From a virus (Duplodnaviria > Caudoviricetes): a stretch of 44,537 nt of DNA. The notes under the pieces are model-generated. The model did no database searches. It worked only from the letters and a program-made list of their open reading frames with translations, and had not been told where the DNA came from. The stretch spans positions 1 to 44,537 of the IMG/VR virus record IMGVR_UViG_3300043753_000013. One strand, given 5' to 3'. Numbering within the stretch: position 1 is the stretch's first letter; every line of letters starts with the position of its first letter. This document shows positions 13,359-37,185 of this stretch, one piece after another. The translations under genes and the position numbers were made by a program.

Positions 13359-13663
13359 GCGCGAACGAAGGACAGTCAGTGTTCAACCACAGGCAAGCCT
13401 TGATCGAACTTCGTCGCCTGGGACGCAGGCTCGATCTCCAGGTGACTGAGCAGACCGGCTCCACGCCGGCGGCGCTGGATGCCACGCTTCGCCTGATGAA
13501 GCAGGTGCACACGGAGATTGAACTCTCCATCGGCGCCAGCATGTTGGCTGTCGCGCGTCGCCGCGCGCCTGCCCGCGCCGGCGCTCCCAAGATGCCGCGT
13601 AGCGGCTCCAACGCCCCCGCGGGCGGAACTGGAAGAGCCCCCGCGGGACGGCCTCATCTCTAG
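13355..13663 (+). CDS. Hypothetical protein
   Basis: GTGA overlap with the HATPase stop; GGAGGGAG RBS. Confidence 0.55.
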   Translation: MSANEGQSVFNHRQALIELRRLGRRLDLQVTEQTGSTPAALDATLRLMKQVHTEIELSIGASMLAVARRRAPARAGAPKMPRSGSNAPAGGTGRAPAGRPHL

Positions 13664-13697
13664 GCGTGCCCCCGTCGTCCGGAGATGAGGCCACTAG

Positions 13698-13733
13698 GAG
13701 ACCCCGGTCGTTCCCCCCTTAGACCGGGGTCTC
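13698..13733 (+). terminator. 12-bp stem-loop (terminator or processing site)
   Basis: GAGACCCCGGTC...GACCGGGGTCTC, intergenic. Confidence 0.55.
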
Positions 13734-13755
13734 TCCGTCACTGAGGAGAGGTGAG

Positions 13756-33390: not shown

Positions 33391-33410
33391 GATGTCTCTC
33401 CCCTAGACTC

Positions 33411-33473
33411 TGGTCTGCCATCATCAGGCCCGGTAGACCATTCCCGGACGACGCCCCGAAGGGCGTTTCGGCT
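33411..33473 (-). ncRNA. Type II hammerhead ribozyme with pseudoknot
   Basis: GCC-GAAA-CGCCC(UUCG)GGGCG-UC-GUCCGG(loop containing UGGUCU)CCGGGC-CUGAUGA-U-GGC-AGACCA; core intact. Confidence 0.85.
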
Positions 33474-33652: not shown

Positions 33653-34315
33653 CTACGGCTCATCGCCCGACACTGTCAAGCGTTGCGTTTGAATGTGCGA
33701 CAGAAGCCTGTCGCCGATGTAGCGGGTGTACGACGGAGGGATAGCCTCCCGCAGGCCATCACGGCTCATCCAATCGACTTCCATGATCTCTCGCGCCAGG
33801 GATGCTCCGGTGAAGTTGCCGACGATCTGCATGTACTCTCCGGGCTTCACGCGCCGACCCATCTTGGCGCTCCTGGCGACGTGAGGACCATGCTCCGGAG
33901 CTTCGAAGGAGAAGCCGTTGCCGGCTTCGAAGAGCCTGTGACGATAGGTCCGGAGACCGAACATCGCTCCGCAGAGCATGACGGGATTGAGAAGGGGTGC
34001 ACCAGGGACGTTCTCAATCACGTAAGGCCTTCCAACCTTGACCAGCGCCTCTCGGAGTGGAGCAACCAGATCGGGATGGTCGTTCTTCCGGATCTTCTGA
34101 GCATTCGTGTAGAGCTGACACGGAGGGGAGCCCGTGATCACATCGAACTCATGGCCATGCTTCAGAACGAATTCAATGGCATCACCGCGGTAAAAATCAA
34201 ATGGGTACCGCGGCTGGGGCGCTATGTCAACCCCGACAACATAGAAGCCGGCGTCGTCATAACCCTTGCCGGCTCCGCCCTGGCAGCAGAAGAGATCGAG
34301 AAGCTTGGGCTTCAA
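33653..34315 (-). CDS. DNA (cytosine-5) methyltransferase
   Basis: LLDLFC..GG motif I, SPPCQ catalytic motif, IENV and RHRLFE motifs. Confidence 0.9.
   Translation of the reverse strand: MKPKLLDLFCCQGGAGKGYDDAGFYVVGVDIAPQPRYPFDFYRGDAIEFVLKHGHEFDVITGSPPCQLYTNAQKIRKNDHPDLVAPLREALVKVGRPYVIENVPGAPLLNPVMLCGAMFGLRTYRHRLFEAGNGFSFEAPEHGPHVARSAKMGRRVKPGEYMQIVGNFTGASLAREIMEVDWMSRDGLREAIPPSYTRYIGDRLLSHIQTQRLTVSGDEP
33674..33687 (-). promoter_or_regulatory. 14-bp operator/stoperator-like site in the 3' end of the methylase gene
   Basis: Exact TGTCAAGCGTTGCG. Confidence 0.65.
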
Positions 34316-34583: not shown

Positions 34584-34644
34584 GGTCAAGCGTTGCGCTT
34601 GACCTCAAGCATGAACCAGGACTCGAAGCTTGTCAAGCGTTGCG
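34584..34644 (-). promoter_or_regulatory. Major early leftward promoter TTGACA-N17-CATGCT flanked by two operators (34631-34644, 34584-34597)
   Basis: Canonical spacing; one operator overlaps the -35 and the other lies just after the predicted start. Confidence 0.7.
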
Positions 34645-34773
34645 CTTCGCGCGACATCTTCGCAGGTCAGAGCACGTAGACCAAACCGTTACCAAGGACG
34701 ATGTCCTCTCCAGAACCGATGGACACCCATACATGGGGTGAGAGCTTCCCTCGCGGGCGCCTTACGCGCGCCC

Positions 34774-34874: not shown

Positions 34875-35149
34875 ATTCAATGAATTGATTATCCGCGCGA
34901 GAGCGCGAATCAAGATCTCCGGTCACCGGTTTGAGTCTCCCGAGTGAAATGCTCCCACTCGGTTTCTGGAAGATTCCCGGTGACCGGAATTTCATTAACC
35001 CCGGATCTCTGGTGACGGCAAAACCTTTCGGTCCCAGGATTTGGATTAATCACCCGCCCTTGTGGGGCGGTTATTGGATATGCGGTCGCTACCCGGTAAG
35101 GGGCTAGATACACATTGGGTAGGTCGTGATTGCCTACCGCATATCTCTA

Positions 35150-35225
35150 CGGCCTATAGCTCAATCGGTAGAGCATCGGCCTCATAAGCCGAAAGATGTG
35201 AGTTCGAATCTCACTAGTCCAACCA
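35150..35225 (+). tRNA. tRNA with CAT anticodon (Met/fMet-like or Ile2)
   Basis: 76-nt cloverleaf: D stem GCTC/GAGC, anticodon arm TCGGC-CTCATAA-GCCGA, T arm GTGAG-TTCGAAT-CTCAC, encoded CCA. Confidence 0.88.
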
Positions 35226-35551: not shown

Positions 35552-35677
35552 CGTCCTGATCTCGATGAGGATCCCGGCCGGCTCTCTTAGCCGGACGGTT
35601 CACCCAGAGTGATGACTGGGATGGTCTGCCCTCTCAAAACTATGGGGGGGTAACCCCCTGACCTGCTCGTTTTTCCT

Positions 35678-35688
35678 CGGGACGAACC
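35678..35688. other. Candidate cos site (3' overhang CGGGACGAACC)
   Basis: Between HNH and terminase genes; preceded by GGGGGGGTAACCCCC; followed by TGCAGCC...TGTACG.GT, resembling actinophage left ends as recalled. Confidence 0.4.
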
Positions 35689-35743
35689 TGCAGCCCGAAG
35701 GATGTACGAGTCTGGGGACTTTGAGTCATGGAGGGGTCACACC

Positions 35744-35914
35744 GTGTCCGACCAGGCAATCGACAGCCTAGAAGCGCTCTACGACGCGCTTGATCGAGTC
35801 GAATCTAGGGCCGATCTACGCGAGATCCTGGAGTTCTGGTCCCCGCCCGACGAACCGAGCCGGCGGCTCGGACAAGGATTCATCTACGACACCTACAGGG
35901 GGATCAGTGACTGA
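35744..35914 (+). CDS. Small hypothetical protein
   Basis: GGAGGGG RBS then GTG. Confidence 0.5.
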   Translation: MSDQAIDSLEALYDALDRVESRADLREILEFWSPPDEPSRRLGQGFIYDTYRGISD

Positions 35915-36125
35915 TGAAGAGCTGAATCGACGCTTCGATCATCATCCGCCGGCAAACCGTGATGTTGCCTATCGGCATGAGCTCGTGCGCGAGACTTGCA
36001 AGGCGGTTGCAGCTTCATTCGATCTCAAGTTGCCCGAGAGCCGTGAAAAGGCTCTCGCACTGACGAAGGTCGAAGAGGCGATGTTCTGGGCCAATGCGGC
36101 AATCGCGCGCGAAGGCGCGCTGTGA
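35907..36125 (+). CDS. Acb2/Tad1-like helical-hairpin protein (putative signalling-nucleotide sponge)
   Basis: RF.HHPP....H..VR and P.SREKALALTK.EEAMFWANAAIAR signature. Confidence 0.7.
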   Translation: MTDEELNRRFDHHPPANRDVAYRHELVRETCKAVAASFDLKLPESREKALALTKVEEAMFWANAAIAREGAL

Positions 36126-36484
36126 TCGATCGCATCAAGGCCTTCAACGATGTGGCCGCCGAGAAGGTGACCGCGGCCCTCAGCAACATGTGGGCCGGCT
36201 ATCTCTTCGCCGCGATCTCTCTTGTTTCGCTGCCGGCAGTTCTCCGGACTCATGACGTCGTCGCCATTGTGGCTTGGCTCAGTCAGAACTTCATTCAGCT
36301 CGTTGCCCTCGCGATCCTCGGTGCCGGTCAGGATCGAGCCGCGGCCAAGGTGGCCGCAGAGATCCACGAGACTCATGATCTGGTGATGGAGGAGCTTCGG
36401 ATCCTGAGGGGCTCCGCCGCAATCGACGGGGAGAACGGGCAGCAGAACGACGAAGGCCCGACCATGGTCGGGCCTTCGGTCTGA
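36122..36484 (+). CDS. Membrane protein
   Basis: Two hydrophobic segments; W.SQ.FIQLV.L.I...GQ. Confidence 0.6.
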   Translation: MIDRIKAFNDVAAEKVTAALSNMWAGYLFAAISLVSLPAVLRTHDVVAIVAWLSQNFIQLVALAILGAGQDRAAAKVAAEIHETHDLVMEELRILRGSAAIDGENGQQNDEGPTMVGPSV

Positions 36485-36565
36485 GAGTGAGAGTTGTTCC
36501 TGCTGGCATCAGCCAATGCCAGCAGATCTCCCGAATCGCCTGAGTGAACCCGTCGTCGAACCTGA

Positions 36566-36642
36566 GGCGCATACCCGCGAACGCGGGGTCAACCTACTCA
36601 TGAAACGGGGCCATGAGCCATCCCCGCGAACGCGGGGCTGAT
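36566..36642 (-). CRISPR. Mini-array of two degenerate type I-E-like repeats with a 21-nt spacer; no cas genes
   Basis: ATCAGCCCCGCGTTCGCGGGGATGGCTC (36642-36615) and GTTGACCCCGCGTTCGCGGGTATGCGCC (36593-36566); CCCCGC/GCGGGG hairpin followed by an AT-starting handle. Confidence 0.6.
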
Positions 36643-36649
36643 GTCTCTG

Positions 36650-36679
36650 ACTATGCCACAGCCGCAGAGCGGCTGTCAT
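36650..36679 (-). promoter_or_regulatory. Candidate promoter ATGACA-N18-CATAGT for the mini-array, with internal palindrome ACAGCCGC-N3-GCGGCTGT
   Basis: The -10 lies 7 nt upstream of the first repeat. Confidence 0.45.
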
Positions 36680-36714
36680 CCGAACACGCAAGCTACAGAG
36701 GGGAGATGGTCACT

Positions 36715-37185
36715 ATGGCTGGTCGTGGACCGGCTCCGAAGCCGGCAGACCGGAAGCGCCGGCGCAACAACGCCGCCCCTACTACCTCTCTCTCCTCTGA
36801 TGGCTCGCTTCGTGGGAGCCCGCTCCCGCGGTCGGGTTGGATGATGAGGCTCGATGGTGAGTCGGCAGAGATGCCGTGGCCGGAGGCCACCAAGACATGG
36901 TGGCTTAACTGGCGCAAGTCTCCCCAGGCTGCCGCTTTCGCGGCCTCGGACTGGGATGTACTCCTAGAGACTGCTGTCTTGCATGCGCGGTTCTGGACTG
37001 GCGATCACGCCGTTGCCTCCGAACTCAGGCTCAGGGTCTCGAAGTTCGGAGCGACGCTGGAAGACCGCGCACGCTTGAAGATGGAGATCGACCAGGGCGA
37101 CGACGCTCCCGCGTCAACCACCTCAGATCCTGCGGTCCCGGACCTGACCGACTATCGCCGCCGCTACGCGGCTGGCAATGAATGA
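36715..37185 (+). CDS. terS: Terminase small subunit
   Basis: MAGRGPAPKP, WP..T..WW..W..SP and ELRLR..KFGAT.EDR.RL motifs. Confidence 0.85.
   Translation: MAGRGPAPKPADRKRRRNNAAPTTSLSSDGSLRGSPLPRSGWMMRLDGESAEMPWPEATKTWWLNWRKSPQAAAFAASDWDVLLETAVLHARFWTGDHAVASELRLRVSKFGATLEDRARLKMEIDQGDDAPASTTSDPAVPDLTDYRRRYAAGNE

Follow-up and report, generated by a model that had tools for sequence, protein, structure and literature searches.

Introduction

Hosts with type I-E CRISPR-Cas systems can encode CreR or CreA mini-arrays, small guides against their own casA (bioRxiv 2023.03.10.532045; bioRxiv 2023.03.03.530964). Viruses carry comparable elements: a type I-E array of a Salmonella prophage represses Cas and belongs to the RNAs termed Cracr, and the same preprint lists 20 type I-E arrays together with targets in Actinomycetota (bioRxiv 2024.10.29.618823). 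Racrs (PMC10651486) and interviral mini-CRISPR arrays (PMC6858448) are further virus-borne forms.

Here we analyse a stretch of 44,537 nucleotides (“the window”), a complete 44.5-kb virus record with terminal repeats, in which two repeats of the type I-E kind lie antisense beside the terminase small subunit gene (terS). Judged from the sequence, this locus is a phage mini-array that likely makes a Cas-repressing RNA anti-CRISPR of the Cracr kind, a reading to which we assign a probability of about 0.68. Because its first spacer nearly copies the guide of host CreR, the RNA likely turns host Cascade into a repressor of its own cas genes.

Results

Phage and host

The window phage is a temperate siphophage from soil with a serine integrase and replication and virion modules, and its host family is Streptomycetaceae. 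The genus is probably Kitasatospora, because the best named relatives of the endolysin come from Kitasatospora, the closest integrated relative (TerL 94%) is a prophage in genome G437, and the Kitasatospora setae repeat, as listed in PMC4762764, is the host repeat of the clade targeted by the array. G437 belongs to a Streptomycetaceae genus with 167 genomes, which is also the genus of all five hosts matched below. A scan of 53 main ORFs (of 194 listed) turned up no cas gene, in agreement with the earlier description of the phage as lacking them.

Several other elements were noted in the window: a type II hammerhead ribozyme between two small ORFs (33409–33473, minus strand; 55 bits against a gathering score of 37, E 9.5e-9), a 6C-RNA-like double hairpin (13648–13738, plus strand) whose 41 bits fall below the gathering score of 47, a tRNA gene upstream of the HNH gene (35150–35222, plus strand), and an operator-like exact direct repeat of 16 nt with a palindromic core (34585–34600 and 34632–34647, with partial copies near 33680 and 34380). 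A solitary hairpin with a tail, a possible Racr, lies at 35040–35066 (minus strand) and another at L002:1400–1435 (minus strand) in a related phage; we take their tails to resemble a type I-C repeat.

An antisense mini-array beside terS

The promoter, the palindrome within it, both repeats and a perfect 10-bp hairpin, all reported in the preliminary description, are present on the minus strand in the order given there (Table 1). The promoter scan found two sites in 1.2 kb against 0.1 expected, with transcription predicted to start near 36642, and the repeat core occurs in two minus-strand copies (mirrored on the plus strand) against 0.03 expected. The inverted repeat in the promoter spacer may serve as an operator. 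Repeat 1 is close to the host repeats of loci L238–L254; repeat 2 shares its loop and stem end with the second repeat of host CreR genes, and the two are spaced 49 nt apart. The repeat–spacer order of the earlier description held, while its register shifted by one base: as host repeats measure 29 nt and host spacers 32 nt (1,386 of 1,441 spacers), spacer 1 is 20 rather than 21 nt long and the segment after repeat 2 is 39 rather than 40 nt. With its 20-nt spacer and divergent repeats the locus departs from canonical type I-E arrays, which in these hosts have the 32-nt spacers just counted. No Rfam family covers the array, and a decayed third repeat within the 39-nt segment, considered as a candidate, found no support in folding.

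Table 1. Features of the array and its surroundings in the window.
Feature	Position	Strand	Remarks
Conserved motif between HNH and terS	35677..35691	−	In 6 of 8 array-less and both array-bearing relatives
Acb2/Tad1-family sponge gene	35790..36125	+	PF24729, 61.3 bits against a cut-off of 27; domain in the last 60 aa
Perfect 14-bp palindrome, then pyrimidines	36451..36478	−	z −4.2; overlaps the end of ORF 36122–36484
10-bp hairpin without T-run	36500..36525		z −4.0
Second segment, 39 nt	36526..36564	−	Second guide or tail; target searches all negative
Repeat 2, degenerate	36565..36593	−	Folds a 5-bp stem only
Spacer 1, 20 nt, after the 8-nt handle	36594..36613	−	CreR mimic (putative)
Repeat 1, type I-E-like	36614..36642	−	6-bp stem, 4-nt loop, 8-nt handle
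Predicted promoter	36650..36679	−	−35, 18 nt, extended −10; promoter scan; hexamers invariant in L001 and L002
8-bp inverted repeat in promoter spacer	36658..36676		Arms invariant, 3-nt centre varies (three phages)
Terminase small subunit (terS)	36715..37185	+	PF25673; divergent from the array promoter

The 10-bp hairpin had been called a candidate terminator. It lacks a T-run, and the T-run terminator scan passed neither it nor the 14-bp palindrome further downstream. It possibly terminates transcription on either strand. The palindrome, which had been overlooked, is as good a candidate and likely terminates the antisense RNA; the arrays of two close relatives (L001 and L002) likewise end in a hairpin followed by pyrimidines. 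When all 211 nt are folded together, the structure of minimum energy pairs repeat 1 with repeat 2 in place of local hairpins, which would need co-transcriptional folding.

The fold is one of the points that favour reading the hairpins as features of the DNA or as incidental, that is, as terminase or repressor sites or as terminators that happen to resemble repeats. The location between HNH and terS is another, as packaging signals are often found there. We nevertheless regard this explanation as the least probable of those considered, in the light of the related phages. Twelve relatives have a TerL of at least 81%; the cassette is present in two and absent from eight, and the upstream DNA is incomplete in the other two. 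The eight array-less phages (TerL 81–83%), which have enough upstream DNA, show neither promoter nor palindrome nor stems, and the array hairpins are therefore not needed for packaging, the more so as six of the eight keep the motif at 35677..35691. This motif, separate from the array, is a packaging-signal candidate. The proposal that the hairpins might prove to be conserved terminase-binding DNA thus fails among these relatives. The opening 8 bases of the second segment recur at 35683–35690 (minus strand) in this motif, which eight close relatives keep; the observation is post hoc, and the site's PAM is not AAN.

An accessory cassette that exchanges its spacers

The two array-bearing relatives, L001 (TerS 84%) and the G437 prophage L002 (TerS 80%), carry the same promoter in the same place, followed by three and four degenerate repeats, respectively, unrelated spacers and a terminal hairpin. 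That repeats persist while spacers differ also speaks against a purely DNA-level role. Two soil runs contain another relative, which shares the promoter and first repeat yet has different spacers, and one of the two contains a contig identical to the window over 36000–37085. The cassette is accessory, with swappable spacers.

About 400 bp from the array lies an Acb2/Tad1-family gene, which also matches the Acb2 homolog of PDB 9ptq (E 3e-5) and whose true start is probably near 35910. This gene is present in L001, L002 and the array-less L078 as well. As it adjoins the array, the neighbourhood looks like an anti-defence spot, even though an array-less relative has the gene too.

A scan of viral sequences for type I-E repeats with a period of 42–56 nt returned 66 loci, 25 of which (symmetric REP-like pairs and ordinary long arrays) were left out, as was the duplicate L311. 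Of the 84 spacers retained, 50 are 20–21 nt long, a proportion to be read with the scan pattern's own preference for short periods. Sixteen records match repeat 1, including eight cultured Streptomyces phages. Streptomyces phages Cumberbatch and Ignacio contain unannotated, degenerate six-repeat type I-E arrays (L406:1990–2300 and L407:990–1300); their first unit opens with the same type of handle and the same five seed bases as the window array, and it had no 9/10 leader match in the cas loci examined. A recurrent family of 20-nt spacers with a common purine-rich core is present in several phages (L010, L025, L029, L037, L049, L050 and L057) and had no target in 186 cas loci.

Host CreR genes target a site upstream of casA

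We sampled 401 Streptomycetaceae genomes, found Cse1 in 196 of them and extracted 186 casA-proximal regions (116 plus 70). Following the definition of CreR in bioRxiv 2023.03.10.532045 and bioRxiv 2023.03.03.530964, a degenerate mini-array with a 10/10 seed and an AAN-flanked site nearby was detected in 35 of the 116 regions and in 11 of the 70 further loci. One type I-E clade of the Streptomycetaceae thus appears, on the sequence evidence, to possess a self-repressing mini-array with a PAM-flanked target just upstream of casA, which is new here. The site of this clade reads AAC-TGGCC-N-TGTTT or a near variant and precedes the Cse1 match by about 29 bp, and the CreR spacer is about 30 nt long in most of the clade. 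The CreR of G437 and the window array agree in 7 of 8 bases of the handle, in the first 6 bases of the spacer and in the loop of repeat 2. The window array aligns best to the CreR genes of the targeted clade (an alignment made without a null control), which also speaks against incidental hairpins.

Two side observations concern these loci. Cse1 matches often lie within open frames of 1,500–1,700 aa (L147–L176, genome table), suggesting Cas3–Cas8e fusions in Streptomycetaceae. Between cas3 and casA of G437, a CreTA-like unit (L426, G437:C1:6201150–6201900) forms a mini-array with a 20-nt spacer and a 49-nt period; the spacer matches an AAC site that precedes a small ORF for a hydrophobic product of about 79 aa.

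Spacer 1 matches the CreR site

Spacer 1 (TGGCC-C-CGTTT) pairs with the site TGGCC-N-TGTTT at 9 of 10 pairing positions, with a mismatch at position 7. The 9/10 match occurs in four loci (L245, L276, L286 and L288), with the same seed in L324; in these matched hosts, the site is flanked by AAC and is that of their own CreR. Among 33,163 AA-PAM sites in the 186 cas loci, five reached 9/10, four of which are the CreR site. Compared with CreR sites, an equally good match arose in 71 of 50,000 shuffles and from 60 of 89,052 phage 11-mers; when any leader PAM site was allowed, it arose in 191 of 20,000 shuffles. Compared with CreR itself, positions 1–5 and 8–11 match, position 6 is unpaired and position 7 is mismatched. 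Nine of the first 11 positions are thus shared when counted discontinuously, but not as an unbroken run; the Cracr criterion asks for at least 9 PAM-proximal bases in common with a host CreR/CreA spacer.

The 85 phage spacers gave 30 matches, 11 of them in casA leaders, where 2.6% of PAM sites lie; the 11 are not independent. Counted by spacer, 4 of the 85 matched a casA leader, whereas shuffling gave 0.69 and at most 4 in 300 rounds. About 80 of the 85 had no target in a casA leader, and many of these come from phages of other genera.

It is unlikely, in our judgement, that the array acts as a decoy alone, a CreR-derived scaffold that soaks up Cas6e and Cascade subunits as a Racr might and whose drifted seed no longer binds the leader. 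The mismatch at seed position 7, present in every matched leader, fits such drift, as does the lack of a perfect target in the 401 family and 167 genus genomes. Exact PAM plus seed gave 18 matches in the family genomes (about 30 with the reversed control), none in leader context, and the exact seed gave three in the genus genomes, none at casA; a loose leader pattern matched the 167 genomes less often than its control and was uninformative. Searching metagenomes for the target together with a CreR of exact seed gave four matches (one unrelated sequence of 36–39% GC, without repeats), and the 40 cas loci with the top Cse1 scores, which belong to other clades, gave no target. Nor do the three spacers of the L002 prophage find a target in their own host: the best match to the resident casA region was 7/10, and no exact PAM-plus-seed site occurs in the G437 genome, whose casA looks frameshifted. 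Competition is, moreover, part of the effect described in bioRxiv 2024.10.29.618823.

Against a decoy alone, the match of spacer 1 stops after position 11, where host CreR matches end (positions 1–11), and the same seed family is kept in the independent phages L008, L011 and L319; the unit of L319 is identical to repeat 1 plus spacer 1 at 34 of 37 positions and matches the site 10/10. One seed mismatch is tolerated by host regulatory RNAs (L247, L323 and L326, and a C-for-T case in G437), and Racrs, as described in PMC10651486, are solitary repeats. Pure sequestration would leave the match to the CreR site unexplained.

Possible targets elsewhere

A different destination for the guides, be it competing phages or further host promoters (for instance those of CRISPR-guarded toxin genes), seems to us very unlikely. 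In favour of this, relatives mix spacers of 20–21 nt with spacers of 30–33 nt, the CreTA-like unit of G437 has a spacer and period of the same length as the window array, relatives' spacers are about 8/10 like a host regulatory seed in L347, and in E. coli interference is possible with a 20-nt spacer that matches in full (PMC5159557). Spacer 1, however, already has a specific target, and the searches for others were negative. For the second segment, 116 loci offered no non-coding PAM site at 9/10, and 70 more loci gave no match; in the viral collection it had five matches, none with AAN, and none in the fetched viral loci. The best of the five, 19/20 in a head–tail gene that two identical fragments share, was judged to be chance; its PAM is not AAN. 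The 32-nt spacer of L001 matches only itself, and no PAM-flanked 9/10 self target was found. No near-full, PAM-flanked viral match of the interviral kind emerged from the viral-collection scan, which covered the second segment, or from BLAST, the method used for spacer 1.

Of the functions proposed in the preliminary description, the one in which a partially pairing guide represses a host promoter thus gains support from the 9/10 match to the CreR site upstream of casA, whereas targeting of competing phages is left without support.

Searching 1,441 host spacers against the phage gave a single strong match, to the array itself. G309, one of the matched hosts, has a normal 32-nt spacer (L262:5186–5217, G309:C58:28385–28416) whose reverse complement, counted by hand, is identical to repeat 1 plus spacer 1 at 27 of 32 positions and to G309's own CreR at 25 of 32. 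A related phage cassette may have been the source of this spacer, an origin that the two figures discriminate weakly.

Discussion

If the array makes a Cas-repressing RNA, the antisense promoter would drive a short transcript whose two stems host Cas6e would cut, releasing an RNA of 8 + 20 + 21 = 49 nt that contains the 20-nt spacer. Host Cascade assembled on this RNA would be shortened, with four Cas7 if it resembles the E. coli complex on 20-nt spacers (PMC5159557), and would be directed to the site, just ahead of casA, through which the host represses itself. Pairing there would involve the coding strand, in the interval from the predicted −10 to the ribosome site, as it does for host CreR; since only about 10 bases pair, binding without cutting would be expected. 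Transcription would be blocked and Cascade expression likely lowered, and the phage RNA would also compete with immune crRNAs.

A tentative and rather doubtful extension is that this promoter-driven cassette with swappable spacers borrows Cascade as a general programmable repressor, the casA guide being one case and other guides (the majority, for which no cas target was found) acting on toxin-guard or defence promoters or on the packaging motif of kin, while hosts acquire spacers against the cassette, as G309 may have done.

Under the Cas-repressing reading, both the self-repression of Cascade through CreR and its hijacking by viral Cracr RNAs would reach into Streptomycetaceae, about half of whose sampled genomes have type I-E systems (196/401), and the exact target site is named. 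As similar unannotated arrays are found in cultured Streptomyces phages, a native phage–host pair could replace E. coli as the setting for testing the class; for industrial actinomycetes, the finding bears on phage resistance and on genome editing with native type I-E systems.

The mechanism is not new, since hijacking of Cascade is already known from other phages. The novelty claimed earlier was overrated: the Cracr class, including type I-E and Actinomycetota candidates, is described in bioRxiv 2024.10.29.618823. Literature searches found no example from Streptomyces or an actinophage, and the main text of that preprint never names Streptomyces, although its Table S2 may list relatives.

Among the other described systems, the array shares with interviral mini-arrays (PMC6858448) a cas-less viral design that uses host effectors, but it has no full-length spacer, and a viral protospacer was not found. 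With Racrs (PMC10651486) it has in common that a phage carries a mimic of the repeat, able in principle to titrate Cas proteins, in a cluster with anti-defence genes; unlike these solitary repeats without a targeting spacer, it has two repeats that flank a host-matching spacer, which sets it outside that class. Host CreR/CreA mini-arrays (bioRxiv 2023.03.10.532045; bioRxiv 2023.03.03.530964), have the same order of repeat, spacer, repeat and hairpin, a 10–11-nt seed and a casA target, and host CreR is the probable source of the phage unit, which differs in residing in a phage with its own promoter and in a spacer shortened from about 30 to 20 nt.

The closest likeness is to CracrIE1 and CracrIE2 of the Salmonella prophage, described in bioRxiv 2024.10.29.618823. 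Both are virus-borne and cas-less with degenerate type I-E repeats and a terminal hairpin, have a short spacer (21–24 nt in Salmonella) with a partial match to host CreR and a PAM-flanked casA site, and adjoin another anti-defence gene, an Acr in Salmonella and the Acb2/Tad1 sponge here. The window array differs in its Streptomycetaceae host and AAC PAM and in pairing at 9/10 seed positions where CracrIE1 pairs 20 bp. Measured by what defines a Cracr, it resides on a mobile element, a whole virus record, and away from any CRISPR-Cas locus, its repeat-like units resemble the cognate host repeat in stem and 8-nt handle, its target in the matched hosts is an AAC-flanked site at the cas promoter region, some 29 bp before the Cse1 match, and its complementarity to that site is partial, with none past position 11.
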